A DNA stretch of 64,000 nucleotides from a candidate division FCPU426 bacterium. Lineage in GTDB: Bacteria > Oederibacteriota > Muellerivitia > Muellerivitales > Muellerivitaceae. The first letter of the stretch is position 1. Each line of letters starts with the position of its first letter. Below the pieces are notes generated by a model. It was given only the letters and a program-made list of their open reading frames with translations. It did no database searches and had not been told where the DNA came from. Where the stretch lies: NCBI GenBank assembly GCA_963738405.1, contig CAVTWJ010000023.1:32001-96000 (forward strand), in the 5' to 3' direction. This document shows, piece after piece, positions 37,375 to 58,445 of this stretch. The translations under genes were made by a program, and so were the position numbers.

Positions 37375-37382
37375 TTTATTTC

Positions 37383-41359: not shown

Positions 41360-41361
41360 GC

Positions 41362-42783: not shown

Positions 42784-44831
42784 TAGCGCCCCTCCAGACC
42801 CGAAGTTAAAAGGTTGTGCCAAACACGAAGAGCCTTCTTGGCTTTTTTCGGGTCATTCTGGATTGCCTGAATCAGTACCGCCTGGACATGTTTCCAACGG
42901 CCCCAGATCCTCCTCGACCTGGTATCTTTCTGGCGTTCCAGGAAATTGACTGCTTCCTGCCCGCCCTGTTCTTTGATACGCGCCGCGACCGCCGCGACCT
43001 GGGACGCGCTTAACCCGTCGTTCTTGGACATTTCACACCACCCCAAGGCCCATTCACCTGCCTTGTCGCTAGCCAGTGTCGTCAGGCTGGGTTCGGGCAA
43101 GTACAGTCCCTCCGCAATGCCCGGGTGGGGCAAGACGGCCCCGTAACCCTGGATGCGCCCATCCAGATCCCCCCCCGAGTCAACCCCCAGCCCCCGGTTA
43201 ATCTGATTCCAAAGGTTTTCCGGCTCCTTTTCCAGCACAAAAACGGACCCGGGCAGGAAAACCCGGCGAGCCGCCAAACGACCTGCGGGATCGATCCGAC
43301 CGCCCAAGCCGTAGCGGTTCCAGCCAAATCGGACACCGCAAGCAGCCATGTGGCCGACCTCGGCAACCCTCGCCGATTTTTTGGGGGAGGCAATCTTACC
43401 CCACCCGCTTTCCTCCACCAGACGGGCCAGGGCGGTCTCGGCGCATTTCACCTGCCAATCATCGGGAATGGCCGCGGGGGATTGAAGAACGAATACTTTT
43501 TTCTTCCAGCCCTTCAATTGCGTGGCCGGTTCTATGTTCCTTATCAACTTCAAGAGCCCCCCCCCACGAACGGTGCGGGCCTTGCCAAAGACAAATAGCG
43601 GGTTTTTTTGGACCAATGATTGGAGTTTTTCAGCGGCCTGTGGAGGTAGCGTGACCCAACCGGCGTAATTAAGCGGGGCCATCGCCTCGACTGTGAACAA
43701 GTTGCGCTTGTCCTTACCTTCCGGGTCGTAATGAACGGCATGAGCCGTGAGAATGCGAGGCATCTCACCCGACTTCCAGAGGAGGACTTTCCCTGAGGAA
43801 TCGCGAAGTAAGACACCGTCAGTGCCTTTTAAGGGGGAAGCCTTGGGAACCTGCGTCCAGTCATAGGGCTCGACCGCCGAATCGCGGAATTGTTGGTCTA
43901 TTTTGAGCTTGCTCATCCTGTGGCTCAATGAAACCCGCACCGGGTTCATCAGTTCCCCGTTACCCTCCTCTAGGAGGGTCGGTAGGAGGGGCCAGGCCCT
44001 GGTCCTGCGGTCCAAAATAGCGGCATGGGCTAGGGCCGAATCAGCTTGTGCTAACCGAGAAATAAGGGCGCCCAATACCGCCGAGGCAGGGATTCCCAAT
44101 CCGGTTCGCAAGATGTTGTTGCCCATATCAGGTGTTTCCGGGCAGCAAACCGGGTCCTCGGCCGAAAATGTAAGCCTCAATGTCACGGCCGGACCATCCG
44201 GTTCTTTGGCGGCAGGGGTTACCATGGGGTTTGGGGTTTCACCCGGCAATCCCTTTTCCATTTCCCTCGCCAGTTCCCGCAAAAAGGCTCCCGGGGTCCG
44301 CTTTTCGTCCGCAATTTTGACCAGACAGGAGCCGCTTCCACGGTTACGGTTACCGCCCACCGCTTCCATGGTCAATAGGGCCAGGGATACGCCAAGGGTA
44401 ACAACCGGCGATGCGCCTTCCGCAATCTCGATTTTCCCCATAAATTTTGTTCCGACGGCCACAGCTTCCGATGTTCTAAGCGTCTGGTTCACTGCCACCC
44501 CCAGTTCCCCCACGGCGGTCCTTGTGATCGGATGGACAAGACCTTGGGCCCCTTCGGGCAGGCGGGCATCGTGAACTTTCACCTGACCCTGATACCCTGA
44601 ATCCCCCTCCTGGCCTGGACGACCCAGAACCCGATTGGTCAGGGTCGGCCAATCCCGGCTGACGGCGATCCGGCCGAGGGTGTCCCTCAAAAGACCCTTG
44701 AGGTGGCTGCTTCGGACCACCGGGCGGTCCTGATGATCCCGTGCCACGATGTCGTTGACCGTTTCACCACCCTTCCCGCTGCCAATCTCTCCATCGCTTA
44801 ACAACTCGATCTCATATTGGATTGTTGTCAT
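42783..44831 (-). CDS. Cas7-Cas5(Csx10) fusion with helical C-terminal Cas11-like domain
   Basis: SSHLKGLLRD, VGGNRNRGSG (Cas7); IPASAVLGAL, FGKARTVRGG, PGSVF, RIQGYG (Cas5/Csx10); helical tail LSASQV... Confidence 0.75.
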   Translation of the reverse strand: MTTIQYEIELLSDGEIGSGKGGETVNDIVARDHQDRPVVRSSHLKGLLRDTLGRIAVSRDWPTLTNRVLGRPGQEGDSGYQGQVKVHDARLPEGAQGLVHPITRTAVGELGVAVNQTLRTSEAVAVGTKFMGKIEIAEGASPVVTLGVSLALLTMEAVGGNRNRGSGSCLVKIADEKRTPGAFLRELAREMEKGLPGETPNPMVTPAAKEPDGPAVTLRLTFSAEDPVCCPETPDMGNNILRTGLGIPASAVLGALISRLAQADSALAHAAILDRRTRAWPLLPTLLEEGNGELMNPVRVSLSHRMSKLKIDQQFRDSAVEPYDWTQVPKASPLKGTDGVLLRDSSGKVLLWKSGEMPRILTAHAVHYDPEGKDKRNLFTVEAMAPLNYAGWVTLPPQAAEKLQSLVQKNPLFVFGKARTVRGGGLLKLIRNIEPATQLKGWKKKVFVLQSPAAIPDDWQVKCAETALARLVEESGWGKIASPKKSARVAEVGHMAACGVRFGWNRYGLGGRIDPAGRLAARRVFLPGSVFVLEKEPENLWNQINRGLGVDSGGDLDGRIQGYGAVLPHPGIAEGLYLPEPSLTTLASDKAGEWALGWCEMSKNDGLSASQVAAVAARIKEQGGQEAVNFLERQKDTRSRRIWGRWKHVQAVLIQAIQNDPKKAKKALRVWHNLLTSGLEGR

Positions 44832-46369
44832 GAGTTCACTTCCGTCACCCAGTTCATCCTTGAATCTTCTTCCAGTAGGAGTAGCGCATCTATCACGGGT
44901 GTGGTACGCACGTTATGCCCGTTTTTGACCGATTTTTTCCATTTGCCTCCGGGTTTTTGGGGGCTTTCACCCTCATCCAGGTCGTTACTCAAAACTTCCT
45001 GGTTCTTCGCCAAGCTCTTCGCGAAGATCTTTCGGTCAAAAAAACCGGCCCTCATCCCTTTCAGCACACGGTGGCGGACCGAACCGGGCACTTTGCTGTA
45101 TTCCTGGGCTAACCGAATGAGGTCTCTCAGATCCGCGACCGGATAAGGCCTTTCGGTCAGTTGGATCCTCTCGTTCTGTAGATCGGCGTCCTGAAAAACC
45201 AATTCACGCTGTCGGCGAGCATGGGGTGTGTCGACCAGCCCCTCGGTGACCGATTCCCAGTCCACAAAAGAGGGGGTCGGAAAAACTTTTTGTTCACGGC
45301 CACCGCCCTTGGCGCTCGCCAGAAGCAGCTCGGTATAGGAGATGGCGGTGCTTAGCGGCAGGCCAATCGGGGCGAAGAGAATCCCGGCCGAAAGGGTGAT
45401 GTGGGATCCGGTAGCGGGCCACAGGTCAATGCCCCCCTTTTTCGCAAGGGCTGCCAATTCGGTGCTTTTCTCCTCGAAAACCCTGCAGGCTTCCCTTACA
45501 AAAGTCATCGCGTAACCGACATGACAAAGAAGGATAATGTCGTCCCCGCCGACCACGAGAGGCCGGATAGGCAGGATTATCTCCCCCCCGTCGACATCGA
45601 AACCTTCCTTTAGAGCGCGGATTTCTTCAATAATTAAGTCGATACCCTTCCTGCATGCTTCACGGCTGCAGGTGTCCAGGTCGCGACTCATCCGCCGAAG
45701 CCAACCGGTGAAAACGTCCGCCCGGTCCCCTAATTTTTCCACGGCCTTTCGATGCTGGGTTCCAATGTCGTTCCCATCCATGGCAATCACCGCCCAGCGG
45801 TTTCGGCCACCTAGTCTCTGCAAGGCTATTTTTCCCGCTGGGGTCGATTTATCCACGTCGTGGAAAAAGCTGAATTTCAAACCTTCTCGGCCATGACCAT
45901 TAACCCCCCCCAGCAATTCATCCTCAAAATAACGGTCCATCCGGTCCCCTTTTTGCCAGACCCGTTTTTTAACGATGTCGCTGACGCCGTTATTGGCCGG
46001 GTAGAGCCCGCTATCGGCACAAGGTTTGCCTCCCAGTTCGATGCTGGAAGGTAGCCAGGGATAAGTTTGGTCCGCGCCGTGGATGGCGACCGTGAAGTCA
46101 TCCGAAACGCCGAAACAGATGGTTAAACCATCCCGGTGCGCGGCTTCTACCAACTTGCGTCGTACCCTTTCCACTGCCTGGTCATTGGTACACTTGTAAG
46201 CGCCTTTTCCGCCGCCTGAAAAGAGGTGCTCTCCTTCCGGATCATTTATGCCTGGCGCGGTCACCCTGTCGTAACGGTCAATCAGCGCGCTTGATCCGCA
46301 AATGTATTTAAGGCGTGGGATTGAAAAGATGAAAGATTGAATGCCTTTTAAGTCATAGCAAAGATACAT
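44828..46369 (-). CDS. cas10: Cas10, HD-less, with intact GGDD palm
   Basis: Begins directly at DLKGIQSFIF; SGGGKG; AVIAMDGNDIG; PLVVGGDD; TLSAGI; 513 aa. Confidence 0.92.
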   Translation of the reverse strand: MYLCYDLKGIQSFIFSIPRLKYICGSSALIDRYDRVTAPGINDPEGEHLFSGGGKGAYKCTNDQAVERVRRKLVEAAHRDGLTICFGVSDDFTVAIHGADQTYPWLPSSIELGGKPCADSGLYPANNGVSDIVKKRVWQKGDRMDRYFEDELLGGVNGHGREGLKFSFFHDVDKSTPAGKIALQRLGGRNRWAVIAMDGNDIGTQHRKAVEKLGDRADVFTGWLRRMSRDLDTCSREACRKGIDLIIEEIRALKEGFDVDGGEIILPIRPLVVGGDDIILLCHVGYAMTFVREACRVFEEKSTELAALAKKGGIDLWPATGSHITLSAGILFAPIGLPLSTAISYTELLLASAKGGGREQKVFPTPSFVDWESVTEGLVDTPHARRQRELVFQDADLQNERIQLTERPYPVADLRDLIRLAQEYSKVPGSVRHRVLKGMRAGFFDRKIFAKSLAKNQEVLSNDLDEGESPQKPGGKWKKSVKNGHNVRTTPVIDALLLLEEDSRMNWVTEVNS

Positions 46370-46425
46370 CGAGAACCCCTTTCAATCATTTGTTCGAGGC
46401 CGCGTAATAACAAGACGTTTGATTC

Positions 46426-47601
46426 TCAAGACAGTAATCCTAATACCTTAATTGAAACCAACGTCCGATCAATCCCCAAAACCGCCTGGAGAGGATGCGC
46501 ACCTGAGCCCCGCCCCAGTTCGTTGACGATCAGCGCTGCTTTCGATGGGCCGAGTTGGGTGATGAGCCGTTTCCCAAGGCGGGACCGCGACGCCCCCCAC
46601 CAATTCGTCTCTAAAATCATGTCTGTATCAAATGGGCCCGTTAATAAATCATCATCGTTTTTGAAAATCCTGTAGGCAATCCTGCAAAACTCCAAATCCT
46701 TGGGTGTTAGCATAATTTTGATCGCATTCCCCGCGTTTGACTGCGCCTGATTGGTTAACCTACAGGGCTTTAACTGACAGGTCTCGCATGACTTAACATC
46801 CCGCGGACAAAGAATTCCATTTTTGCGCCACGCCAAAAGCGCCACCCAGAGGCTCTGTTTCGGGTCCAGGTCAAGCCGTTTCCCGTCCACTTCGATGTAA
46901 CCAGGGGCCTTTTCCAAGTTCACCGTCAAGCTGACCTGCTTCATGTTGAATTCCTCAAAAGCCGTCGTGAGCGAGGTTTTCAATAAATCGAGATGGATAT
47001 TCCTGAAAAAGTTATTGAGGCGAGGAAAAGGCACTTCAAAAAGATTAACCCATTTTATTTCGGCCTTCTTTTTGGGGTCAGGATACCACCCATTCGAAAG
47101 TTTCTTTTCCTTTCCCGGGTCCATGAGAACGTGGTAAAGAGTGTCCCCTTCCCTGGCGAAGGCGGACATACCAAGGGTCAGGTAAGCGGACATGGTTTTC
47201 CGCCCGCCCGCGAGGGAAGCTTGAAGCCCCACCGCCGGGTCTTTTGTGAATTCGTCCAAACGTTGGGCGATTTCCTCTTCCATGGCGGCGTTGGCCTCGC
47301 TGTCGCCAAGATCTTTTTTTATTTTCATTTTGGGGGGAATATGGATTTGAGATTCACCAAAAAGCGGGAAGGTTTTAGCCGGTAATTTCCAATCTTTCCA
47401 AAGCCTGGCAAAAGGGCCTTTCTTCATATCGATCAAGCCGGCTTCCAGAATTTTATTTTTACCTTCGCTGGTCGTGATCACATGAATTTCAGTAAGAATC
47501 ATTTTGTTTCTTACCACCAAAGCCCAAATCGCCTCGGTCAATACGGCCGGTGATTCCCCACCCGTCGCCAGAAAAATACTCTTTTTCTTATTCATAAACA
47601 C
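46426..47601 (-). CDS. NE0113/Csx14-type CARF protein with a C-terminal Cys-rich, HTH-like domain
   Basis: LATGGESPAVLTEAIWAL, EIHVITT, ASLAGGRKTMSAYL, GDTLYHVL. Confidence 0.8.
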   Translation of the reverse strand: MFMNKKKSIFLATGGESPAVLTEAIWALVVRNKMILTEIHVITTSEGKNKILEAGLIDMKKGPFARLWKDWKLPAKTFPLFGESQIHIPPKMKIKKDLGDSEANAAMEEEIAQRLDEFTKDPAVGLQASLAGGRKTMSAYLTLGMSAFAREGDTLYHVLMDPGKEKKLSNGWYPDPKKKAEIKWVNLFEVPFPRLNNFFRNIHLDLLKTSLTTAFEEFNMKQVSLTVNLEKAPGYIEVDGKRLDLDPKQSLWVALLAWRKNGILCPRDVKSCETCQLKPCRLTNQAQSNAGNAIKIMLTPKDLEFCRIAYRIFKNDDDLLTGPFDTDMILETNWWGASRSRLGKRLITQLGPSKAALIVNELGRGSGAHPLQAVLGIDRTLVSIKVLGLLS

Positions 47602-47761
47602 CCCCCCTTAAATTAGTTTTCAATCTTAAACCCGCCTGTCTTGTCTTTATAAATATCTTTCGCCCGTAAAGTCATTTAACGCTTCCTTAACATTGGTTTT
47701 CTTTTTATCCACTAATTTTAAGCCATTGTCTCAAAAGTCTTTTCCAATTCTAGTTGTGTTA

Positions 47762-48430
47762 TTAACGTCCTCGTCCCGAGCTTCTAAATGAACAACCCAT
47801 CGGCATTCTCATGGGAGGAGGCGCCGAGTAGTACATCACCCGTGGGGCGGAATAAATGACCCTAGCCGGTTGGGGATTAGCGTATCGAACGTAAGCCCGC
47901 CGAATAACCCGCCTTGGCGGGGTTGGGAGATAGACCCGAACATAACGATGGTCAATTACGGGGGGGCGAACAATCGTTCTCCTTTGATGGTATTGGTAGG
48001 ACGGCCTGGTGAAATGCCGGATCGGGTTTGAGATATATCCTCCTGTCTGATGGGTGATCGCTACCACACTAGCTTGGGTATAGGATTGCGACGAATAAGG
48101 ATAAACCGAAGAAGCCATTTGGGCTGAACTAGGTTGATTCGCGTGTCCTACAACTACGTTCCGGGATGCCGAACGCGTGACATGATTTTCACCTTCTGCG
48201 GGTGGATTACTAACGCGATGGGAAAGGGCCTCTAGACCCAAGAGGATGATTCCCCCACCCATTGCCAAGGTGAAAAGGATCGGACCCCAGTTTCGCTGGG
48301 CGCGCGGAACCGGTCGGTAAGGCGCGGTAACTCCCTGAACCGTTCTATGGCTCGGCGAAGAGCCAACGGGATTGATGGTCCCTTGAACCCTGTCGAAAGT
48401 GAACTGATCATTCGTTACGAAGCGTTCCAT
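47762..48430 (-). CDS. Single-pass membrane protein with low-complexity R/P/Y-rich tail
   Basis: GGAGG RBS; TM segment ILFTLAMGGGIILLGL. Confidence 0.55.
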   Translation of the reverse strand: MERFVTNDQFTFDRVQGTINPVGSSPSHRTVQGVTAPYRPVPRAQRNWGPILFTLAMGGGIILLGLEALSHRVSNPPAEGENHVTRSASRNVVVGHANQPSSAQMASSVYPYSSQSYTQASVVAITHQTGGYISNPIRHFTRPSYQYHQRRTIVRPPVIDHRYVRVYLPTPPRRVIRRAYVRYANPQPARVIYSAPRVMYYSAPPPMRMPMGCSFRSSGRGR

Positions 48431-48536
48431 TGGGCCTCCTTTCTTTTTTATCCTTATCCTTTAATTGAATACTACCAGTTCTTCGACATCTTAAAACTTT
48501 TGCAAAATTGCGCCCTCCTGAAAGCCTTCCTGGTGT

Positions 48537-50657
48537 TTACTCATCAGATATCACCAGAGAGAGCCCTACCATCGGCTCGATTCTTTTGAACACCACTTTT
48601 TTGCCCCGCGTCGCCATGGTCTGTTCCGCCAGTTTGTCCAGGATCTCCTTTTGGAGCAGGCGGTTCATGGGCCTGGCCCCGAACTCGCTGGAGAAGCCTT
48701 GTTCGGCCAGCCAATCGACCGCTTCCGGAGTCACCTCCATTTCCACCCGCCCCTTCAAGCGTTCCTGGTACTCCCGGATCCTCATGCGGACAATTTCGCC
48801 GAGGGCTTCCCTGGGCAGAGGTTTGAAAAGTATGATCTCATCCATTCGATTCAGGAACTCGGGACGGAAAAACCGCTTCAGTTCACCGGTCAACCCTTCC
48901 CCCGACGGACGACCATCCCGGCTAGACGCTCCAATATTGCTCGTCATGATGATGACCGTATTCTTGAAATCCACTGATTTGCCCGCACCGTCGGTCAAAC
49001 GTCCATCGCCCAGCACCTGCAAAAAGAGGTTGAAGACATCCGAATGCGCTTTTTCCACCTCATCTAACAGCAGAACCGCGAAAGGCCTGCGGCGGACCGC
49101 CTCGGTCAGCTGGCCGCCCTCGCCATAGCCGAGGTAAGAGGGGGGCGCCCCGACGAGCCGCAAAACGGAATGCTTTTCGCTGTATTCGCTCATATCCAGC
49201 CGGACCATGGCCTTTTCCCCCCCGAAGAAACAATCGGCGACCGCCTTGGCCAATTCGCTCTTTCCCACGCCCGTGGGGCCGGTGAACAAAAGGGAAGCGA
49301 TCGGCCTTTTGGGGTCCGCTAACCCAGTAAGCCCGCGTTGAATGGCCCGGGCGACCACATTCACAGCCCCATCCTGGCCTCGGACTTTTTCCCGCAGTTG
49401 CTCGGCTATATCCGCCAATTTGAATTCTCCCGACCCATTAACAATGGAAAGAGGTATGCCTGTTTTTTCTGAAACCACCTCGGCGATATCAGTTGCAGTG
49501 ACCCTTGCGCTTATATTTTTTGCAGATCGAATATCCGCCCGAAGGCTGACCCTGGTCGCGGCTTCATCCAACAGGTCGATGGCTTTATCCGGCAGGAAAC
49601 GGTCCCCAATGAAACGGGTGGATAGGCTGACTGCGGCTTCCAGGACATCTTCCCCTATTGAAACGCCATGATGAGTTTCATAACTTTCTTTAAGACCTCT
49701 CAATATTTGGATACTGTCCGCAGCGTTCGGTTCCCCCACCCAGACCTTTTGGAACCGACGCGCCAATGCCGGGTCTTTTTCGATATGCTTGTGGTATTCG
49801 TCCAATGTGGTCGCCCCAATGCACCTCAAACCCCGTGCCAAAGCGGGTTTCAATATGTCGGAAACACTCGAACTGGCGTTCAATGCCCTGCCAAAAAGAG
49901 CGTGAAGCTCATCGATGAATAGGATGCTAGATGGCCCCGATTGCGCTATTTCGTTCAGAAGATTTTTAATCCTTTCTTCCATCTCACCCTGCCAAACAGC
50001 CCCACCCATGATTTTCACAACGTCAACCGCCATCACTTTTGTCCCCCAGAGAGGCCTTGGGGCCTGGCCTGAAGCAATGAGTTGGGCTAAACCTTCCGCG
50101 ATGGCCGTTTTACCGACACCGGGCTCGCCTACCAACACGGGGTTATTTTTGGTTCGACGCGAAAGAATGCGAATAACGTTAGCCAATTCTACCTGTCGGC
50201 CGATCATGGGTTCCAAATTGCCCTGGCGCGCTTCTTCCGTAAGATTCCTTAAAAAACTGGAGGCGGCAACTGGGGATGGACCAGACCGGGGCCCTCGGGG
50301 CTCGGGCCTAACTGGATTTCTAAACTCTTGGAGTGCACAGTCCAACAAAGGATCTTCGGGATAATGGCCGTTAATCAGCGTTTCCCAAAGGCAGTTCAGT
50401 TCGACGGTGCCATTAGGCGCCGAGGATTGCATGGCGCGGATGGCATCCTGGGATACGTGAAGCGTTTCAATTGGAAGACCCCCTCCGTTCGCAAACCTTA
50501 AGTTTGCTTTTAATCTAACAACTTTATCGGATGGCCTAACGATTTCACCGTTGTCAGCGATAGCAAGAACCAAATGCCTGGATTTCAAAAATGGGTCAGG
50601 ACCGGCGTGCCGGGCGGCCGTTAATAGCAGGTTTTCAGGAATCTCAATGGGTTGCAT
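48537..50657 (-). CDS. Clp/Hsp100 AAA+ ATPase (two NBDs) with an atypical N-domain
   Basis: RRTKNNPVLVGEPGVGKT, LFIDELH, EKDPALARRF, RFLPDKAIDLLDEA, GPTGVGKS, LLLDEVEKAH, FRPEFLNR, GARP. Confidence 0.92.
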   Translation of the reverse strand: MQPIEIPENLLLTAARHAGPDPFLKSRHLVLAIADNGEIVRPSDKVVRLKANLRFANGGGLPIETLHVSQDAIRAMQSSAPNGTVELNCLWETLINGHYPEDPLLDCALQEFRNPVRPEPRGPRSGPSPVAASSFLRNLTEEARQGNLEPMIGRQVELANVIRILSRRTKNNPVLVGEPGVGKTAIAEGLAQLIASGQAPRPLWGTKVMAVDVVKIMGGAVWQGEMEERIKNLLNEIAQSGPSSILFIDELHALFGRALNASSSVSDILKPALARGLRCIGATTLDEYHKHIEKDPALARRFQKVWVGEPNAADSIQILRGLKESYETHHGVSIGEDVLEAAVSLSTRFIGDRFLPDKAIDLLDEAATRVSLRADIRSAKNISARVTATDIAEVVSEKTGIPLSIVNGSGEFKLADIAEQLREKVRGQDGAVNVVARAIQRGLTGLADPKRPIASLLFTGPTGVGKSELAKAVADCFFGGEKAMVRLDMSEYSEKHSVLRLVGAPPSYLGYGEGGQLTEAVRRRPFAVLLLDEVEKAHSDVFNLFLQVLGDGRLTDGAGKSVDFKNTVIIMTSNIGASSRDGRPSGEGLTGELKRFFRPEFLNRMDEIILFKPLPREALGEIVRMRIREYQERLKGRVEMEVTPEAVDWLAEQGFSSEFGARPMNRLLQKEILDKLAEQTMATRGKKVVFKRIEPMVGLSLVISDE

Positions 50658-51897
50658 GTTGAGCCCGCCTTATCTTTTTCCCGCAACACTCGCAGGAATC
50701 CAGGGGATCGGTTTTGACCCCATACCACCTAAAAGGCGCCAACCCCTGTTTGAAGCCGGCAGCGCATAAGGGTGTCATCTTTCCTTCATAAGGGCCTTCG
50801 CGTCGGGTTGCCTGGAAAAAGAAACCATGTCCGTCGGCGAAATCTTCCATCCATCCCTCATAGCCACTGGGTTTTCCGTAAGTCAGGGCGATGAGGGCTA
50901 AACGGGCCATGAAGGCAGGCACGGGCGCGATATCCACGGCCAGTCCGGCCCAAATGGCCGTTTCCTTGTCAGCATAAGCGGGCAGGTTTCGATCCGCCGA
51001 GTGTAACGATGAGATTTCTTCGCTTTCATTGGAGAAAAATCCGCCGCCATAAAGACAGGCGAAACAGGCTTTTTGATGCCCCGGCCAAAACCAAAAAACA
51101 TCCCCGCCCACGCCCCTTTGAAGAACCCTTCCAATAACGAGAGGCTTGTTCCCAGTAACGCAGGCCTGATTGGCTTGGAACCGGGTTGGGTTGTTGTCCG
51201 TACCTACGACGCACAAGGAGGATTGTTGGACTAAGGCCGCGAGATTCATTTCGCGCATATCGCCGTGTAGGGTTTGCACATCAACCCATGGGTTTTTTTG
51301 TTGAAGCATAGACTTGACCGCATCAACCTTCCGGCGGCCTAATTGATTCAATCCAGCCGTATGGCGAAATAGATTCTCAAGGGCAATATGGTCTCCATCC
51401 ACCAGTATGAAGCGCATCACACCCGATTGAACTAGCAGTTGCGCTGTTTGGGAACCAAGTGAACCGCAACCCAATATCAAAACGGTTGAATCGGCCAAAT
51501 CGTCTACTTCCAACAAACCCTTTTGTCTGTCAAAAAGGAGTTCCCTTTTAGGCAATTCACTGAGAACCAAATCAGTTTCCTCGTCGTCACGGCAGTGGTA
51601 AACATGGGGATTTTCACCCTTATGGTGTTTTAGAATCACGAAACCCTCTGTGGGCGCAAACTGCTTCGCACGGGCCAACAACCTGGTAGGAATTTCCATT
51701 CCGTCCGGAACCGCGACTAAGGGGCTCGGAAGGCCAACCGACCGCCGGGCTTCCTGGCTGGACGGATCGGGGAAAACGTGCCATACCCGGCCTTCATCAA
51801 GAACCCGGCTACCCGCAGGGAAAAAACAAGGCTCGGGGGGCAAACGATCCAACCCCGGCCAAAGAAAAGCCTTGTTGGGGATTGAAGAAATCTTCAT
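50644..51897 (-). CDS. ThiF/MoeB/E1-like adenylyltransferase
   Basis: ILGCGSLGS, LVDGD...NLFRH, GRRKV, GTDN, CFAC and CECC zinc pairs. Confidence 0.92.
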   Translation of the reverse strand: MKISSIPNKAFLWPGLDRLPPEPCFFPAGSRVLDEGRVWHVFPDPSSQEARRSVGLPSPLVAVPDGMEIPTRLLARAKQFAPTEGFVILKHHKGENPHVYHCRDDEETDLVLSELPKRELLFDRQKGLLEVDDLADSTVLILGCGSLGSQTAQLLVQSGVMRFILVDGDHIALENLFRHTAGLNQLGRRKVDAVKSMLQQKNPWVDVQTLHGDMREMNLAALVQQSSLCVVGTDNNPTRFQANQACVTGNKPLVIGRVLQRGVGGDVFWFWPGHQKACFACLYGGGFFSNESEEISSLHSADRNLPAYADKETAIWAGLAVDIAPVPAFMARLALIALTYGKPSGYEGWMEDFADGHGFFFQATRREGPYEGKMTPLCAAGFKQGLAPFRWYGVKTDPLDSCECCGKKIRRAQHATH

Positions 51898-52106
51898 TCG
51901 GTCACCTGGTTCTTTCCCCCAAAGCCCCGGGCGGCGATCTGCTGGATCGCCAAGTTTTGGGTTTCACGGTTGGGTTCGCCCATCCGGAGTTCACCCGTGG
52001 CGGGATCCATCAAGATGGCTTGGCCGGGGGTTTTACGAGGCAGGGGGGGAGCCGTAACCTCGGGCTGGGAGTTTCTTAACCTGTTGAATTCATCCATCAG
52101 ACCCAT
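51894..52106 (-). CDS. 70-aa peptide with near-terminal Gly-Gly (candidate conjugatable tag)
   Basis: GGAGG RBS; ...IAARGFGG-KNQVTE*; ATGA overlap with the E1 gene. Confidence 0.7.
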   Translation of the reverse strand: MGLMDEFNRLRNSQPEVTAPPLPRKTPGQAILMDPATGELRMGEPNRETQNLAIQQIAARGFGGKNQVTE

Positions 52107-52133
52107 AAAGCACCTCCAGTTATTTTTCGGTTA

Positions 52134-52880
52134 TTAAACCGACCAGCCTTTTTCTGAATCGTTCAGCGCTCTTCTTGATTCGATATTACCAACTATTTTT
52201 AAACCTACCGGATTTGCAATTTTACATTCCGTTAAATTCTTCCCTTGGCCTATCGATTGTGTTCTGGCGTTCCCTTCCGCAGGCCGAAAATCCTTTGACG
52301 GTGGCTCTGAACACTTTTTTTCGAGGCCGGAATTATTCCTTGAAGCAGGAATGATTTTGATGGGAACCGGAAAATACTCGCCCTTAGGTAAAAACAGTGT
52401 CGCAGTCAAAACCAGTTTGGGTTTAAACGTTTTTGAGATGGAAGCAACAACGGCCATGAGCGGAAGTCCGGTTGATTGAGCGGTTGATTCCATCGTTGAA
52501 ATATCATGGCCGCTCACTGTTGGCAGACCCAAAGAATGGTGGGAATGCCATTGGCCCATATAGGCAAAACCCTGCAAACCATTCAGTTCGGCATTATGAA
52601 TTTCATAAGCAGGATCTTGTGTAAAGAAAGCGACATGCTTCACGGCTTTAGGGCCTGGGCCGGTTATCCGGGATATTAAGAACCATTTCCCCAGGTACAA
52701 CTTTCCGTAGAGGCCGCCCCCCGTTTCGTTTCTGGGGTTGGCAAAAGTTTCTCTTTCGATTTCTTTGTGGGCCGATTCCCTTATAAACAGACGTAAATGA
52801 GTCACGCCCGTCGTTTTGAAAGAAGGTTTTCTTTTGGCTTTGGGTTTGAACAGTTTTATCCAGAACATTACACGCCCCAT
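52134..52880 (-). CDS. JAB/MPN+ (JAMM) metallo-isopeptidase
   Basis: ETGG.L.G, GPGP, GQWHSHH...SGHD (E-HxH-S-D). Confidence 0.88.
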   Translation of the reverse strand: MGRVMFWIKLFKPKAKRKPSFKTTGVTHLRLFIRESAHKEIERETFANPRNETGGGLYGKLYLGKWFLISRITGPGPKAVKHVAFFTQDPAYEIHNAELNGLQGFAYMGQWHSHHSLGLPTVSGHDISTMESTAQSTGLPLMAVVASISKTFKPKLVLTATLFLPKGEYFPVPIKIIPASRNNSGLEKKCSEPPSKDFRPAEGNARTQSIGQGKNLTECKIANPVGLKIVGNIESRRALNDSEKGWSV

Positions 52881-53329
52881 TCATTAAAAACTTGTTGGAT
52901 CGATTGTCCGGTTCTGAGATGCACGATGAAAGCTTCGGACCATAGCCGGGTTTTTACACACAGGTTGTATATGCTGTCGTTCGGTTTCCAGTCGTGGATC
53001 GTCACACAGAGCCTTAGCCTATTTTTACGGTTTGGCACAAGTCCAAGGACATGAAACGAAGCGTTAGCGCTTACAAACTGATCCCCTTGCCGATCAATGA
53101 CCGGATTAGGCTCATCAACAAGGACAAAGGGTTCAATGGAGCTTTCCTCTGGAAAATCGATGGTGTACCTGAACAAAAAACGCTCATTCGTCGGGATATT
53201 GATCTTAAACACGATAATTTCATTCCTGTCCCGAGATTCAGTTTCAACTCTCGCGTCCTGGAACCCATGAGCCCGTAACATGTTAAGTTCGAAGTCAGCC
53301 CTAATCAGGCGCTCTTGGGTGTAAGCCAT
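52868..53329 (-). CDS. Prokaryotic E2/UBC-like protein
   Basis: N-terminal helix RL..(D/E), beta strands, FP....P.V.V..P, FHVL...RLC....WKP..SI, LW: UBC-like His/Cys/WxP spacing; GAGGAG RBS. Confidence 0.65.
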   Translation of the reverse strand: MAYTQERLIRADFELNMLRAHGFQDARVETESRDRNEIIVFKINIPTNERFLFRYTIDFPEESSIEPFVLVDEPNPVIDRQGDQFVSANASFHVLGLVPNRKNRLRLCVTIHDWKPNDSIYNLCVKTRLWSEAFIVHLRTGQSIQQVFNEWGV

Positions 53330-53724
53330 TGGATTTTCTCCTCTCTACCGCGATTCTCTCTACCCTCGTTTAAACCTTACCGGAATTTAGTCACTGTGTG
53401 TTTATTTGCAATTTTGAGAATTATGGGTCTCCTAACCCGACTTTCGGATGCTACCACTGAATTGTCTGGAGAACGGTTTTGCAAATTTGCGGGGCGGAGA
53501 CCGAAGAAGCGTACAAAAGACTAGAAGCAAAGAAGTAAGCTGGTACGCAACTTTGTGTAAGTTCTGTGTTGATTGGCTTTTATGAGGACATTCCAAACGC
53601 GAAGAAGAGTTTAATGGCAGGGTTTTACTCAACAAGCTTTCATTTAAACGGAAATTGGATGTGCATTAACTGGAAAAAATTATTACAGGGCTTGGAAACG
53701 AGTGATTTCTTAAAAGCTCAAAAT

Positions 53725-53925
53725 TTACGGATCTTCTATATCATTACTTCCCTGGTACAAAACCACATTTGATTCTTCCCAGGTTTGGAGGGGGAGTTGG
53801 TCGCTGGTCCAGACTTTCAGGATAGCTTTCCCGTCATTTTTCGAAAGGATGATCTTCTTGACCTGACCTCTAATCTTGAACCGCAGGTGCTGAACCCAGT
53901 CATTGATTTCGATTTTATTAGTCAT
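53725..53925 (-). CDS. Small hypothetical protein (SH3-like pattern)
   Basis: INDWVQH..F.IRGQV; 66 aa. Confidence 0.4.
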   Translation of the reverse strand: MTNKIEINDWVQHLRFKIRGQVKKIILSKNDGKAILKVWTSDQLPLQTWEESNVVLYQGSNDIEDP

Positions 53926-53967
53926 GATTTTGGCATGTGTTTAATTTTATCCATCTAGTTGGACCCT

Positions 53968-54966
53968 CTAAAGAACAGCTCGAAGTTCCGCAAACCGAGC
54001 CAGCACATCCCTCCAATGCGGGTATGGGGCGTAACAAAGAAGTCGGCATTGCTCCTCGTACTCAGCACCAATGACCGTTGCCAATTCCGCAGGTGGAAAA
54101 AGAGCATCGCTAAGCGAAAAACGCATGTCTTCGGGATAGAAATAGCTCTTGGGGAAGGCCGTGCGGCTGATATGGTCGTAATCCGTTTTGATGGTGCCGT
54201 ATTCCTTTGACCAAAGCATGGCGATGACTTCAGGCTGAGACGCCAGTTGGAAAAGATCGTAATAGTGTCGCGCATAACTGCCAATTGGACGCCGGTCGCG
54301 TTTCAACAGCTCCACCTTACTGTGGATGGCAAACATTTTCTCAACAAACGTCCGCCTGAAATGAAGCAACCGGAAGGGAAATCCACCCTCATCCTCCGCT
54401 CCCAAAGACGGACCTTTCTCCTTCAGAAACTGGCCGAGATAGGATTGAAGATTCACGATTGTTGTGGGTTCACGCCCGCTGGCCGTACCGGCCTCCACAA
54501 GAACACGATTGGCGACTTCCCCAGAACCACCGAAGCGCTGCGTATAGGAGAACCTGTCACTACGGCCAAAACCGCCAATCGTTTGACTCTCCTTTTCGAT
54601 GAACGTCAGCGCAGGATGGGCACCAATGGCGTCCCGGAGTTTCTTGAGTTCCCGGTCAATCGCCCGTTTAACCAACGCAGGTTGAAAAGCGGCAGGGTCA
54701 AGAAAAAGGTCTATGTCTTCCGAAAATCGCTGGATCAAATTCCAGCCTTTGAGCAGGCTGGTGCCGCCCTTGAAGATGACTTTGTCCCCTGCCGTGGCCG
54801 CAATAATGCGCAGGGCTTCAGTGACGTAATAGTCTTTCTCGATGATGGCCGGACGCAATCCTTGGGCTCGGAAATGTTCCGCCGCCCGGATAATCGCCTG
54901 TTCGAAATCAGGGTTTTCATACAGTCTCACGTCAACGACGCTCCTTTGCCTGCCATTCGGAAGCAA
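53968..54966 (-). CDS. AbiEii-type nucleotidyltransferase toxin (second module)
   Basis: IEKDYYV, FKGGTSL, RFSEDIDL, RTFVEK, ARHYYDL; true start probably near 54935. Confidence 0.9.
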   Translation of the reverse strand: MLPNGRQRSVVDVRLYENPDFEQAIIRAAEHFRAQGLRPAIIEKDYYVTEALRIIAATAGDKVIFKGGTSLLKGWNLIQRFSEDIDLFLDPAAFQPALVKRAIDRELKKLRDAIGAHPALTFIEKESQTIGGFGRSDRFSYTQRFGGSGEVANRVLVEAGTASGREPTTIVNLQSYLGQFLKEKGPSLGAEDEGGFPFRLLHFRRTFVEKMFAIHSKVELLKRDRRPIGSYARHYYDLFQLASQPEVIAMLWSKEYGTIKTDYDHISRTAFPKSYFYPEDMRFSLSDALFPPAELATVIGAEYEEQCRLLCYAPYPHWRDVLARFAELRAVL

Positions 54967-55678
54967 ACTTTAAACTAGAAAAAATTCCAAAGTCGAATCT
55001 AGAGAATGGGTTGAGGGATTCTCGTAAACGGCGCAACACTTTCGGATTTTTTCCAAGCTGTTTCCCCGCCGCACCCAATATCGCCCTAACCCTCGGTGGT
55101 TCGGAGTCCGCCACACTGAGCAAACGCTCAAAGCACCCCTTTTGGGATAACAAATCCATGGTTCGGCTGATGGTTTCGGCAGGGGACATTTCACTCGATT
55201 TCCCCCCCTGGCGCAGAAAATCCAGAAGCGCGGCTTCCTTTTCCGCAAGGTTTCCCCATGCTTCCGGTCTGCGGGTATGAATGACTGTATTCTTCCCAAT
55301 AAGCTTGCGGGGAAGGCTTGAGGCGCTTGTGGCGATCTCGCTTTCCTTAGGGTTCTGGGTTGTGAACCCCAAGAGATTCGCGGCTGCAATCCCTGAAGGA
55401 AACATCGTCTTTCGCTTCGAAGCAAGCATCTGGATTAAAGCCGGATTTGGACGGCTTTTACCAAAGTTGGTTTGCCGTGTCCGGTAATAGACACCTTTGC
55501 TAAGCCGATCAATCATCCCGGCGCGCGTAAGCCGTGAGAGAGCCTGGGCAACTGCTGCAAATGGAAAATCCCGAAAATCCTCCAAACGCCATAATCGTTC
55601 GCCGCCATTTTCGACCCGTTGGCGGACAAGCCCGGAAATTTTGGTTGGATTGGAAGGCGTTTTAAGGATCGTGGACAT
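54932..55678 (-). CDS. AbiEi-like / DUF6088 antitoxin (second module)
   Basis: AVAQALSRL...G.I.RL.KG.YY, AANLLGFTTQ. Confidence 0.85.
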   Translation of the reverse strand: MSTILKTPSNPTKISGLVRQRVENGGERLWRLEDFRDFPFAAVAQALSRLTRAGMIDRLSKGVYYRTRQTNFGKSRPNPALIQMLASKRKTMFPSGIAAANLLGFTTQNPKESEIATSASSLPRKLIGKNTVIHTRRPEAWGNLAEKEAALLDFLRQGGKSSEMSPAETISRTMDLLSQKGCFERLLSVADSEPPRVRAILGAAGKQLGKNPKVLRRLRESLNPFSRFDFGIFSSLKFASEWQAKERR

Positions 55679-55708
55679 ATTGATAATATCGGGCCAAGGC
55701 AACTTTAC

Positions 55709-55736
55709 GTCAAGTTTTTTTGCTGTAAAACTTGAC
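55709..55736. promoter_or_regulatory. Inverted repeat, probable AbiE operator overlapping a TTGAC -35-like element
   Basis: GTCAAGTTTT-N8-AAAACTTGAC upstream of the antitoxin ATG. Confidence 0.65.
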
Positions 55737-55788
55737 ACTTATCAATTAACCCCCTTTTAGAGCCACCTATGCTCAACCTCATCAAGGT

Positions 55789-56613
55789 TTACTTCCCTTC
55801 ATCTACCAACGGGTGATTCAACTGGTGCCAGATCCGTTTGAACGGAAGGGACACGGCCTTCTCATAATCTGATACAAACCATCGGGATCGTTTTCGTTCA
55901 TCGATTCGAGAGCGAAGGATATTGATCATTCTTTTTGCATTTTCCGGATTCGCCGAAACAACGAGCCGAAGTGCATCAGGAAAAGATTCATCTAGGTATT
56001 CAATCATTCTTCTAATTTTCCCTTCTGGGTTTTGAACATGCTCGAATTCCAATGCAAAACCGTATCTCTTCCCTTCCAAATCGGCCTCGAAATACCCATC
56101 AGGAGTTCTACGCCCCTTACTTTGGATATTGACCCAATTAGAACGCCATTTTCCCTTGTCTAATTCCCCCGCCAAAAATGTCTTTTTAACTTCCTGAGTG
56201 ATACCACCCCGCATTTCAAAGTCTGAAAGCCAAAACACCCTTTTAAGTTCAGTATTCGCCTCAAACGCGATTCTTATGGTTTGAACAAGCAAGTCGTGTT
56301 TTCTTTCGTATGGATTAATCTTTACAGGATAATTCACGCTTCGTACAAGAATCTTGCCCATTGCGTCTAAGGCCTTGATGGCACCACCCGTCAGGTAATA
56401 CATAGAATCCTGAAAAGTGGTTCCTTCCGCCTTGGTCACTTCCAAGAACCCTTTTTTCAGATATTGGTTTCTAAGAACATGGCAGGCCATTCGGTAGGTT
56501 CGGGGTTGGATGAACCTTTTGTGGAATAACTCGGGAATGGTGAACTTATTGGAATGAATCCAACCTAAATGCGCAGCTTCTTCTTCCGTTATTAAGAAAT
56601 TCGGCTTCATCAT
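55789..56613 (-). CDS. Replication-relaxation family protein (wHTH + PD-(D/E)xK fold), candidate relaxase
   Basis: YYLT..A, HDLL, PDGYF, ALEFE motifs; directly downstream of the coupling-protein gene. Confidence 0.65.
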   Translation of the reverse strand: MMKPNFLITEEEAAHLGWIHSNKFTIPELFHKRFIQPRTYRMACHVLRNQYLKKGFLEVTKAEGTTFQDSMYYLTGGAIKALDAMGKILVRSVNYPVKINPYERKHDLLVQTIRIAFEANTELKRVFWLSDFEMRGGITQEVKKTFLAGELDKGKWRSNWVNIQSKGRRTPDGYFEADLEGKRYGFALEFEHVQNPEGKIRRMIEYLDESFPDALRLVVSANPENAKRMINILRSRIDERKRSRWFVSDYEKAVSLPFKRIWHQLNHPLVDEGK

Positions 56614-56618
56614 TTGCT

Positions 56619-58445
56619 TTAACCCTGTTTCCCATGCTCATTGTGCATAGTTAATTCAATTTCCAGTTTTTCGCCCACTGGCGCTTCACCCTTTTTCCGC
56701 TGTTTTGGTTCTTTAGGCACAACAGGAATCTCGATCTTATTGAACTCATTTTTCTTCAAGTGGTTATTTCGGATAGGAACGCAACCCACATAATCGAATT
56801 CCCTCGGAGGAGGTTTGACTTCTTTGAGCTTCATTTTGAAAACCTTCGGGCCTGAGACATAAACGATCCTGCACACCGCTTCCCCACGTTTCATTCCCCT
56901 CAAGTAATTAGGATGAATAATAAACTCCTCATCCTGTTTTTCGGTCCGTCCCCTAGGCTGAGAGATACGGGTGTCATATGAATAAACGTCTTTCTTTGTG
57001 ACTTTGGTCCCGAAAATCGATGCGAAGAAGTCCACCGTGTCTTTCTCAGTGATGTTCATCACGATTTTGTGGTTGGTGTTGGTGAGAATGTCATCCTTGA
57101 ATTCCTGGCTGACGGCCCCCAACTGGCCCAAGCTGTGGTGGGCTAAAAAAAAGCAAACATTTGCTTCGCGCCCTAAGGAAATAAGGTCATTGAGCCCCGG
57201 ATAGGCGGCGGTGTAGAACTCGTCCAAAAAGACGAAAAAGGGCCTTTCCGGCTTCTCAATAAGCCTCCGCCCTATAACCCCCGCCAAGTCAGTTAGGGCC
57301 GAAATAATGACCGGTTTGGAGTCCTCCTGGTTCACAAGTGAAGAGGTTCCAAATAGGAATATCTGTTGTTTCTCAACCACATCCCTCATCTTGATATCCG
57401 GGTTCAGGGTGTTGATAAGGGGTGACCACTCACGGGTGGTGAAACGTGCCAATTTGCTAGTTAGGCCTGAAAGATTAAGCTCCCTGTCCTTCTCCGACAT
57501 ATTGACCCACTTTTCCAGGAAGTATTTCCCCGAGACGGTGTCCTCGTGTTTCCGAGCCAAGACCTTTATCGAATCGAACGATCTGATTTCGTTTGAGATA
57601 AGGTTCTGGTAATCCATCCGGGTAACGTGCTTGAACTCCAAGAAAAGAAGGTTGGTAAGGTTGCTCAAAACGTCGCTGGCTTGGTCCCGATAATATTCCT
57701 GGGTCACAGGGCCGTAAAAGATCGACTTCATGAGGCCATTGAAGACCTCGTCTGGCTTATCCTTGAAATCCGGGTTGTAAGTCTGGCTCCTTTTCACATC
57801 TGCCAAATCAAAATACTTAAGGTCATGGAGCCGTCCATATTTCTGGGCGTAATAGGGAATGTGTTTGTTGTAATTGGATTTGGCGTCGAAAACGAACATC
57901 CCCAAACCGTTCCTGATCCCCTGTTCAATCATGTGGTTGAAAATGTTTGTTTTTCCCATGCCGGAAGATCCGATGACTTCCGTGTGGTACTTGAGCAGTT
58001 CAGCAGGAATGAAAAACTTGTTTTCCGCATCTAGGTATAAAGAGAATTTTCCGCCTTCTTGGCGGGGCGACTCGCCCGGATGCTCTGGGATATGTCTCAT
58101 GAAAAAATGAATAAAATAAATGCAGAAACCTATCAGGATGGAAAGCCCCATCACCACATCCCCCGTGAACCCCTCGGTTCCCAGAAACACCCCGAAAAAG
58201 TCATGGCAAAAAGCTAGGGCAATAACGGCAGGGGCCAAGGCTAAGAGGTGGGTCATTCGGACATGCTTCTCAAACATGTAGAGAAAACCCACGGAGAGGG
58301 CCGCAAGAGTGTCAAAGGGGGTAACGGATGGGGATATGACCCCTAAGACTTCAAGGGTGAATTTAAGGCCCGAATAGACCCCAAATCCAGCTAAGACAGG
58401 AGGGGTGTGCTTCTCAACTGATTTGAAAAAATTCCAGGTACTCAT
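56619..58445 (-). CDS. VirD4/TraD-like type IV coupling protein
   Basis: N-terminal TMs; HTEVIGSSGMGKT, VFDAK, YNP, VFLDEF, GREA, HSLGQL. Confidence 0.85.
   Translation of the reverse strand: MSTWNFFKSVEKHTPPVLAGFGVYSGLKFTLEVLGVISPSVTPFDTLAALSVGFLYMFEKHVRMTHLLALAPAVIALAFCHDFFGVFLGTEGFTGDVVMGLSILIGFCIYFIHFFMRHIPEHPGESPRQEGGKFSLYLDAENKFFIPAELLKYHTEVIGSSGMGKTNIFNHMIEQGIRNGLGMFVFDAKSNYNKHIPYYAQKYGRLHDLKYFDLADVKRSQTYNPDFKDKPDEVFNGLMKSIFYGPVTQEYYRDQASDVLSNLTNLLFLEFKHVTRMDYQNLISNEIRSFDSIKVLARKHEDTVSGKYFLEKWVNMSEKDRELNLSGLTSKLARFTTREWSPLINTLNPDIKMRDVVEKQQIFLFGTSSLVNQEDSKPVIISALTDLAGVIGRRLIEKPERPFFVFLDEFYTAAYPGLNDLISLGREANVCFFLAHHSLGQLGAVSQEFKDDILTNTNHKIVMNITEKDTVDFFASIFGTKVTKKDVYSYDTRISQPRGRTEKQDEEFIIHPNYLRGMKRGEAVCRIVYVSGPKVFKMKLKEVKPPPREFDYVGCVPIRNNHLKKNEFNKIEIPVVPKEPKQRKKGEAPVGEKLEIELTMHNEHGKQG

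Follow-up and report, generated by a model that had tools for sequence, protein, structure and literature searches.

The known E1/E2/JAB systems of bacteria attach either a beta-grasp ubiquitin-like protein (Ubl), as in Bil and Bub, or a signaling enzyme itself, as in the antiphage signaling system based on cyclic oligonucleotides (CBASS). In excerpts of the Iyer 2006/Corbett-laboratory classification, class 6a combines an E2-E1-JAB fusion with a metallo-beta-lactamase, class 6b corresponds to Cap2/Cap3 of CBASS, classes 6c and 6d are Bil, in which the Ubl is of the beta-grasp type and the E1 is multidomain, and class 6e is Bub, whose E2 uses a serine and whose protease is DUF6527. Here, we describe a cassette encoding an E2-like protein, a JAB/JAMM metallopeptidase, a 70-amino-acid (aa) peptide, an E1, and a Clp/Hsp100 ATPase within a 64,000-nucleotide (nt) stretch (the window) of the genome of a candidate division FCPU426 bacterium (contig CAVTWJ010000023.1, positions 32,001 to 96,000). 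The cassette is a real operon for ubiquitin-type conjugation, with a predicted UBC-fold E2, a JAMM peptidase, and a single-domain E1, that carries its own small peptide, and it belongs to a sizeable, unnamed family. It fits none of classes 6a to 6e as those excerpts define them. The E2, of the cysteine type and rather canonical, is split from the E1, which is single-domain; no beta-grasp signal comes from the small gene; and there is an attached ring ATPase. The whole is, on balance, probably a peptide-conjugating E1/E2/JAB cassette with Clp as a partner module.

In type II CBASS, as in the cassette, the E1 has one domain and a zinc site, the peptidase is a JAB, and the E2 belongs to the UBC superfamily, and CBASS supplies both the best PADLOC matches to the components and the best structural match to the E2. 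As in CBASS, the substrate would be recognized by a short C-terminal tail ending in glycine or alanine, and the conjugation genes form a portable module placed on varied immune modules, with one relative (locus L003) lying in a CBASS operon. The two differ in that Cap2 is an E2-E1 fusion, whereas here the genes are separate, and in that the E2 here has retained the His, the Trp, and the proline-rich features, all absent from the E2 domain of Cap2 according to the part of the Ledvina preprint that describes it. Moreover, the six genes of this locus and their neighbors in the window include no SMODS/CD-NTase match, a dedicated peptide of 60 to 70 aa and an attached Clp are present, and the E1 profile matches ThiF, UBA5, and MoeB more closely than it does the solved Cap2.

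Bil types I and II (BilA Ubl, BilB E2, BilC JAB, and BilD E1) resemble the cassette in having separate E2, JAB, and E1 genes plus a small modifier gene; in excerpts of the published accounts, the Bil modifier precursor is trimmed by JAB to expose a glycine, and the genes occur in defense islands, often near CRISPR-Cas (CRISPR, short palindromic repeats that are clustered and regularly interspaced). Bil has a beta-grasp Ubl as its modifier, a multidomain E1 (IAD-AAD-CYS), and no ATPase; in the cassette, the peptide gives no beta-grasp signal, and the E1 has one ThiF domain in 417 aa. Bub (class 6E, DUF6527) provides, in sections of its published description, a precedent for a fused modifier released by JAB and for an E1 that lacks a catalytic cysteine; in Bub, tyrosine and serine take the place of that cysteine. 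It differs in its E2 serine and DUF6527 serine protease, as opposed to the invariant Cys108 and the lack of any DUF6527 match in the cassette.

The section of Kaur et al. (2020; PMC7159879) on conflict systems describes Ubl ligases combined with FtsH and MoxR. These FtsH-ternary systems likewise join conjugation to an AAA+ chaperone in a conflict system, but the components given there (a beta-grasp Ubl-E2 fusion, a RING E3, MoxR/vWA, and FtsH) are all missing from the cassette. A figure legend in Altae-Tran 2023 places ThiF among the domains of CRISPR-linked genes. Full-text literature, with subscription journals and supplements lying outside the search, yielded no description of the cassette, of the peptide, or of a link to Clp, HerA, or type III CRISPR. 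What is notable in the cassette is the dedicated peptide together with the recurrent ring-ATPase partner, of which a prior description may still exist.

Pup, in the Pup-Mpa/proteasome tagging of actinobacteria, is a small and probably unstructured tag with a GG-containing C terminus that is served by a dedicated ring AAA+ unfoldase (Mpa). It is ligated through a side-chain carboxylate by the glutamine-synthetase-like PafA/Dop, with no E1 or E2. Pup-Mpa, in its pairing of a small tag with a ring unfoldase, is an analogy only; Pfam, PADLOC, and NCBIfam give no PafA/Dop match at this locus. If the reading proposed above is true, a short peptide without a beta-grasp signal would widen the concept of a ubiquitin-like modifier, and the near-constant ring-ATPase pairing would tie conjugation to mechanical protein remodeling in prokaryotic immunity. 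Until now, such a tie has been known from eukaryotes and from the Pup system, which is unrelated. Hundreds of E2 clusters and a copy on a plasmid of a cultured Bradyrhizobium make the idea directly testable.

Organization and recurrence of the cassette

Six open reading frames (ORFs) occupy positions 47762 to 53329 on the minus strand. By their coordinates, successive ORFs overlap by 13, 4, or 14 nt or are separated by 27 or 106 nt, exactly the co-oriented arrangement listed in a sequence-only reading of the window. The E2 and the E1 are encoded by separate ORFs, with the JAB and peptide genes in between. The order E2-JAB-peptide-E1-Clp is repeated in a metagenome contig (L011) that shares 73% DNA identity with the window over 3.3 kb and contains a C-terminal fragment of the E2, the JAB, the peptide, the E1, and the initial 329 residues of Clp. 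Genes for the E2, JAB, peptide, and E1 also co-occur in many distant loci, which were among 33 loci fetched through the E1 family (alignment A1). Because the order recurs in L011 and these four genes recur together in distant loci, the arrangement goes beyond chance; synteny elsewhere, on which the sequence-only reading had made its proposal depend, is thus present at both distances.

Neither the E2-like ORF nor the peptide nor the last ORF of the six has any match in Pfam, PADLOC, or NCBIfam, and no PADLOC or NCBIfam system model matches the cassette beyond the level of its JAB and E1 components, consistent with the earlier reading, which did not recognize the architecture. That last ORF (47762 to 48430, minus strand; 222 aa) is an orphan transmembrane (TM) ORF of low complexity, with one hydrophobic stretch and a tail rich in Tyr, Arg, and Pro, that starts 106 nt after the Clp gene and ends 160 nt before a CARF gene. 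No homologue of it occurs in any fetched locus, L011 ending before that position. Its inclusion by the sequence-only reading as a member of the system is therefore unsupported, and it is to be dropped until a homologue is found.

The E2-like protein and its family

The first gene of the cassette (52868 to 53329, minus strand) encodes a 153-aa E2-like protein whose candidate catalytic residue is Cys108. In 20 sequences of its family (alignment A2), P67, P74, H93, C108, and W114 are invariant, within a proline-rich "FP...P...P" stretch and a His...Cys...Trp spacing that is typical of UBC proteins. An AlphaFold2 (AF2) model built on A2 has a mean predicted local distance difference test score (pLDDT) of 83.8 and a predicted template modeling score of 0.80. 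In a Foldseek search of the PDB with this model, the top 50 matches are all E2/UBC entries, at weak E values (0.02 or worse), and the highest TM-scores (0.55 to 0.56) belong to a Serratia CBASS CdnG-E2 complex. VIA-align likewise places the E2 of CBASS CdnG-E2 first (8yjy_B; Z, 9.7; root mean square deviation, 3.7 over 129 residues), followed by the Tsg101 UEV domain (Z, 8.7), BubB (7.9), and the Cap2 E2 domain (7.4). As modeled, the ORF has the UBC fold that the sequence-only reading had expected, and its cysteine is invariant in the family.

Among 1.84 billion protein representatives, the A2 profile detects 624 clusters at E values of ≤1e-3, 401 at ≤1e-10, and 156 at ≤1e-30, most of them stand-alone proteins of ~150 aa. 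When 24 family members were compared with Pfam, none reached the cutoff of a UBC-type model except for RWD in two tandem proteins, and the subthreshold matches were to UQ_con, RWD, and UEV. Because its predicted fold and structural matches are those of UBC proteins while the Pfam cutoffs remain unmet, the E2 family is a family of the UBC superfamily that lacks a Pfam model. The architecture that the sequence-only reading did not recognize as described is indeed without a published description in the literature searched, but it is one member of this sizeable family of 624 E2 clusters rather than a singular case.

A word-index search with the E2 returned only itself, and an iterated search of all ORFs recovered the family in 23 of the 33 fetched loci, always beside the E1. 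The relatives come from Victivallales, Lentisphaerae, Gammaproteobacteria, Syntrophobacteraceae, Myxococcota, and Deltaproteobacteria metagenome-assembled genomes. The protein itself occurs in none of 60 relative genomes, and the E2 profile finds nothing in the 98 other genomes of the phylum of the window, such that the family is present in 1 of 99 genomes, that of the window itself. The cassette therefore looks horizontally mobile, given relatives in such varied taxa and its presence in 1 of 99 genomes of its own phylum.

The JAB peptidase and the E1

The JAB/JAMM metallopeptidase (52134 to 52880, minus strand; 248 aa) consists of a domain at residues ~28 to 177 and a C-terminal extension. 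It matches the PADLOC JAB model (E = 1.9e-12) and, below the respective cutoffs, Pfam Prok-JAB (0.0099, under cutoff) and the C-terminal part of the NCBIfam 6A-MBL cap2_3 model (1.4e-10, far under cutoff). The JAMM motif is intact, with E52, H112, H114, S123, and D126 kept in 21 or 22 of 22 family members, in line with the JAMM peptidase that had been called from this sequence.

The E1 (50644 to 51897, minus strand; 417 aa) comprises an N-terminal domain of ~120 aa without an assigned fold, an adenylation domain that matches ThiF at residues 127 to 286 (8.5e-33), and a Cys4 zinc site; the CBASS-derived E1-E2 model of PADLOC matches at 1.2e-30. Residues G143, G145, G148, D167, D169, R178, K190, D234, C278, C281, C402, and C405 are invariant in alignment A1, and these include the nucleotide- and zinc-binding residues of the ThiF/E1 protein described earlier. 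Compared with solved structures, the E1 profile matches ThiF (3e-31), UBA5 (1e-27), MoeB (2e-27), MccB (5e-22), PaaA (1e-17), and Cap2 (7e-16). Judged by its sequence, the E1 is a single-domain adenylase of the ThiF/MoeB/UBA5 type with a zinc site. Ser296, in an "EE[VI]SS" stretch within the loop that follows the first CxxC, is also invariant in A1.

These affinities bring in two other pathways that use such enzymes. A sulfur-carrier pathway of the ThiS/MoaD type would account for ThiF and MoeB as the best E1 sequence matches and for a peptide that ends in GG plus a tail. It is very improbable, since the E1 remains under the NCBIfam ThiF/MoeB equivalog cutoffs throughout (TIGR02356, 102.8 bits versus 275), library scans find no rhodanese, thiamine, or molybdopterin genes nearby, the peptide gives no beta-grasp signal, and an E2 and a JAB are present. 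The occurrence of the cassette in 1 of 99 genomes of the phylum also makes a housekeeping role of this kind unlikely.

The second is a pathway resembling those for ribosomally synthesized and posttranslationally modified peptides, in which an E1 of the MccB/PaaA type, an adenylase with an N-terminal peptide-clamp domain, would adenylate a precursor peptide at its C terminus for chemical modification. JAB would serve as leader peptidase, with export or immunity as the task of Clp and the TM protein. The E1 profile does match MccB (over the adenylation domain only) and PaaA, the E1 shares with MccB an extra N-terminal domain and a Cys4 zinc site, and the substrate would be a short peptide. Such a pathway is nonetheless improbable: a predicted UBC-fold E2 with an invariant cysteine is encoded in every well-sampled locus, the partners are of the defense type (CD-NTase with TIR-SAVED, TIR with a nuclease, or HerA with a kinase), library scans detect no transporter or tailoring enzyme among the operon genes or their neighbors, and ThiF, UBA5, and MoeB all outscore MccB.

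The 70-aa peptide

Between the JAB and E1 genes lies the candidate modifier precursor (51894 to 52106, minus strand), a 70-aa peptide with the C terminus ...GFGGKNQVTE. No other protein of the cassette is as well conserved between the window and L011, at 86% amino acid identity and a ratio of nonsynonymous to synonymous substitution rates (dN/dS) of 0.12, as against identities of 61% for JAB, 72% for the E1, and 78% for Clp. Its ATG is preceded at 8 nt by a GGAGG ribosome-binding site that is kept in L011. The peptide is a real conserved gene under purifying selection. Conservation is confined to one part of it: up to the end of ...ARGFGG (residue 64), 58 of 64 positions are identical, compared with 1 of 6 in the tail (Fisher exact test, P = 2e-4), and such a conserved core with a diverged tail is the pattern expected of a precursor that is trimmed after GG.

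Distant loci contain a small ORF in the same place, with a shared helix-like N-terminal segment, a core of the form "hydrophobic-x-[YFW]-D-P-x-[TS]-[GK]" (alignment A3), and a C-terminal aromatic residue. Of the 28 loci in which the 5' flank of the E1 is present, the A3 profile detects a peptide unit next to the E1 or fused with it in 27, L007 being the sole exception; five more loci are cut by contig ends. In most loci, the peptide is free and upstream of the E1, and L025 has two tandem peptide genes. In L008, an ORF after the E1 (8895 to 9716) contains two tandem peptide units, each ending ...MARTGFF[A/S], and a long hydrophobic tail rich in glycine and alanine; its appearance is that of a precursor in the style of a polyprotein or of a form anchored in the membrane. 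The tandem copies in L025 and L008 resemble, by analogy, the precursors of ubiquitin-type modifiers. A triple E2-peptide-E1 fusion that seemed to be present in L016 was rejected, as the E2 ORF there does not share the reading frame of the peptide-E1 ORF.

The C termini of the peptides also recall the substrates of Cap2. In the portion of the Ledvina preprint that concerns them, the tail of type II CBASS CD-NTases is disordered and its C terminus is conserved; this is Gly in the Vibrio CD-NTase, whereas the conjugated remnant of the Enterobacter enzyme is Phe-Ala. Because CD-NTases, as described there, end in Gly or Phe-Ala, peptide endings such as ...FFA and ...GG resemble those of the substrates of Cap2-type E1s. 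No conserved Gly/Ala C terminus occurs in the partner proteins of the window or in the downstream proteins of its relatives.

The peptide gives no beta-grasp signal and no Pfam match even at an E value of 10, and a search of the ESM Atlas gave a best score of 0.78 and no look-alike. Separately, L018 (4680 to 5024) and L024 (3567 to 3890) encode, between the E2 and a classic AAA ATPase, a conserved protein of 107 to 114 aa whose C terminus, ...NP[AV]TG[EK]W..., resembles the "DPxTG" core of the peptide family.

Partner modules of the family

The genes that follow the cassette were compared across distinct loci with enough downstream sequence, after merging L005 with L014, L020 with L033, L021 with L022, and L031 with L032, the members of each pair having identical ORF lengths and scores. 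In 18 of 24 such loci, a ring-type P-loop ATPase lies directly after the cassette. It is a HerA/FtsK-like ATPase of ~900 to 1,000 aa, sometimes split, in 14 loci; a classic AAA ATPase (PF00004 plus AAA_lid_6), located after the gene for the 107- to 114-aa protein, in 2 (L018 and L024); and Clp in 2 (the window and L011). The other six (L003, the Bradyrhizobium plasmid, L007, L008, L013, and L019) have no ring ATPase. The inclusion of a dedicated unfoldase, which the sequence-only reading had noted, applies to this locus, where the unfoldase is Clp, but Clp is found only here and in one fairly close relative, most members having a HerA/FtsK-like ATPase instead.

The HerA-like ATPase matches the PADLOC mad8 and HerA models and is usually followed by conserved proteins of 170 and 213 aa, a WD40 protein, and a Ser/Thr kinase resembling MAD6/PD-T4-6. 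The commonest relatives are thus sets of at least nine genes, namely, JAB, E2, peptide (free or fused), E1, HerA/FtsK-like ATPase, the 170-aa and 213-aa proteins, WD40, and Ser/Thr kinase, as seen at positions 5847 to 16334 of L031 and also in L033, L015, L025, L021, L002, L004, and L005. No PADLOC or NCBIfam system model covers this set as a whole.

Other relatives have other partners. In L003, the only relative with a CD-NTase, this enzyme and a TIR-SAVED protein come after the cassette, and a type III restriction-modification system and DrmD are in the flanks; the absence of a CD-NTase noted from the sequence therefore describes the window and not the family. CARF genes near relatives encode RtcR-like CARF-AAA regulators (L004 and L025) and a CARF7 protein (L007). 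A variant is carried by a conjugative plasmid of a cultured organism, pBb323S2b of Bradyrhizobium barranii (L037, 7185 to 13555), in the order JAB, E2 (profile E value, 1.8e-47), peptide-E1 fusion, hypothetical protein, dsDNA-nuclease-domain protein, and TIR protein. As a mobile module found beside varied defense partners, the cassette most likely has a role in antiviral or anti-mobile-element defense.

The Clp ATPase

The Clp/Hsp100 two-ring AAA+ ATPase of the window (48537 to 50657, minus strand; 706 aa) matches Pfam AAA_2 (1.3e-60), AAA (4e-23), AAA_lid_9, and ClpB_D2-small. The NCBIfam ClpB and ClpA models score under their cutoffs, and ClpB models match in two stretches. The protein aligns with ClpC (6em8_A) across both rings, which together with the Pfam domains bears out the two nucleotide-binding domains that had been called, and its residues 1 to 122 remain unaligned. 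It has no coiled-coil M-domain between the rings, query residues 376 and 378 being joined to ClpC chain residues 408 and 462. In the D2 loop, Clp has ...PSGEG... where ClpC has ...FAGFG... (SGE for AGF), followed by a deletion of 14 residues. We take this loop, with its hydrophobic-Gly-Phe/Leu tripeptide, to be the ClpP-docking site of ClpA, ClpC, and ClpE; if it is, the altered loop without a docking tripeptide suggests that this Clp would act as a stand-alone unfoldase. In 5.8 billion proteins, the N-domain (residues 1 to 122) has one relative, a 99% identical fragment, and by language-model features only it lies near Clp_N (29 of 30 matches; score, 0.94), which is a lead only.

Proposed mechanism and its alternatives

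In the mechanism that we propose, JAB would trim the peptide precursor after ...FGG (Gly64), and the E1 would adenylate the C-terminal glycine so exposed. The peptide would then pass to Cys108 of the E2, perhaps directly, the E1 having no conserved cysteine for the transfer; in the portion of the Ledvina preprint that reports it, the E1 cysteine of Cap2 is dispensable in vitro. From the E2, the peptide would be attached to a target protein, and JAB could reverse the attachment. Clp, translationally coupled to the E1, would recognize and unfold or disassemble peptide-tagged proteins, or would itself be controlled by tagging, and in doing so would fill the slot held by other ring ATPases in relatives. 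The genes, predicted folds, catalytic motifs, peptide conservation, and synteny described above are observed, whereas we infer every chemical step, the target, and what Clp does, much as in the "tag then unfold" pathway that the sequence-only reading had suggested. The proposal is weakest in taking the peptide to be what is conjugated and in the role that it gives to Clp. More tentative is a broader version, an E1/E2-driven pathway in which a tag of ~60 residues without a ubiquitin fold, made as a precursor, in tandem, or fused to the E1 and released by JAB, would be read by ring translocases, Clp here and HerA-like or AAA proteins elsewhere, that unfold or dismantle tagged, probably viral, proteins. 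Such an immune pathway would be convergent with Pup-Mpa and ubiquitin-Cdc48 and might operate together with the adjacent type III CRISPR-Cas.

Several observations weigh against peptide conjugation as set out here, beginning with the enzymes. The structural match of the E2 is moderate only (Z, 9.7; Foldseek E value, 0.02), and by sequence its profile finds nothing significant among solved structures, the best match being an RWD domain at 0.0095. The sequence profile of the E1 is nearer to those of ThiF, MoeB, UBA5, and MccB than to that of Cap2. Alignment A1 contains no invariant E1 cysteine outside the zinc site, which makes the step of transfer from E1 to E2 uncertain.

The peptide itself raises further objections. 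It is fused to the E1 N terminus in L004, L016, L017, L019, L020/L033, L031/L032, and the Bradyrhizobium plasmid, and these fusions fit an accessory element of the E1 as well as they fit a cleavable precursor. In an AF2 model of one of them (L019, alignment A4), residues 1 to 181 mostly have a pLDDT of <50 and the adenylation domain alone is confident. The Gly-Gly motif, by which the sequence-only reading had defined the peptide, is followed by a variable tail in a conserved gene of the window but is not universal: with or without a short tail, it occurs in the window, L011, L005, L015, and L025, a minority of the peptide family, and many members end in ...GFFA, ...GFF, or other small residues.

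These features could mean that the peptide is an accessory of the E1, sometimes with a gene of its own, that acts in docking, in recruiting the E2, or as a pseudo-substrate. The true substrate would then, as in type II CBASS, be a different protein of the partner module, here the ATPase or a neighboring CRISPR component. Excerpts of the published work support such a scheme in that Cap2/Cap3 conjugate the signaling enzyme itself in CBASS and probably in Thoeris. We regard an accessory peptide as rather unlikely. A substrate of this kind should be visible as a partner protein with a conserved C-terminal Gly/Ala tail, and none was seen in the window or its relatives; the core is conserved and the tail variable, copies occur in tandem, and a JAB is universally present, all of which suits a precursor that is processed; and in free-standing peptides, 0 to 15 residues separate the conserved aromatic position from the C terminus.

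Doubt about Clp concerns its linkage, which is limited to the window, one relative with 73% DNA identity, and a near-identical fragment (99%) and could stem from common ancestry instead of from selection to keep the genes linked. The Clp and TM genes might be mere neighbors of a unit that consists of E2-JAB-peptide-E1 alone or of these genes with the adjacent type III-D CRISPR-Cas. The TM ORF is without a homologue, no terminator-like site rises above background between the cassette and the CARF/Cas10 genes, and CARF genes lie near four relatives, L004, L025, and L007 among them, as well as 160 nt downstream in the window. We consider it unlikely that Clp is a bystander, since 14 nt at the E1 stop are shared with its gene, its slot is held by a ring ATPase in 16 other distinct loci, its N-domain is almost unique and unlike that of a housekeeping Clp, and the absence of an M-domain and of a ClpP loop is what would be expected of a specialized paralogue.

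Genomic surroundings

The host genome is 3.18 Mb and 90.7% complete. No RNA sequencing run is listed as containing it, and DNA runs contain small shares only. Downstream of the cassette and on the same strand, separated from the TM ORF by 160 nt, is a complete type III-D-like CRISPR-Cas locus (31348 to 47601) with genes for a CARF protein (NE0113), a short Cas10 (513 aa), three fused Cas7-type proteins, a Card1-type CARF nuclease, Cas6, Cas1, Cas2, and a separate reverse transcriptase; its array (31348 to 33564) has ~30 repeats of 37 nt. One of the fused Cas7-type genes encodes 806 aa without a Pfam match. Immediately upstream of the cluster is an AbiEii toxin/AbiEi antitoxin pair (53968 to 55738). 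The cluster is in a defense island, the context that the sequence-only reading had invoked, with AbiE on one side and type III-D CRISPR-Cas on the other.

Between the E2 start and AbiE (53330 to 53925), there is a noncoding leader of ~400 nt and a 66-aa ORF (53725 to 53925). The leader has no Rfam match and no sigma-54 pattern, and the ORF belongs to no family. Across the window, the sigma-54 promoter pattern occurs 43 times versus 52.8 expected, with no occurrence upstream of the E2; scans for sigma-70 promoters and terminators gave results at or below the shuffled background, and an Rfam scan of positions 47400 to 54100 returned no match. Pfam searches at E values of ≤10 with the Clp N-domain, the E1 N-domain, the peptide, the TM ORF, the JAB tail, and the 66-aa ORF yielded a single match, at 0.23. 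Repeats in the region are short two-copy matches only, which were taken as chance; a 21-nt direct repeat (D1) shared by the peptide and CARF genes was also set aside as chance, its copies being read in different frames.

Beyond AbiE, positions 55789 to 58445 encode a TraG/VirD4-like coupling ATPase (608 aa, also a match to PADLOC mad8) beside a 274-aa protein without a family, which hints that the island is on or beside the remnant of a conjugative element. Farther along, positions 59129 to 63952 encode a 1,607-aa protein of Ig-like, fibronectin-III, and related repeats that is probably a surface protein.

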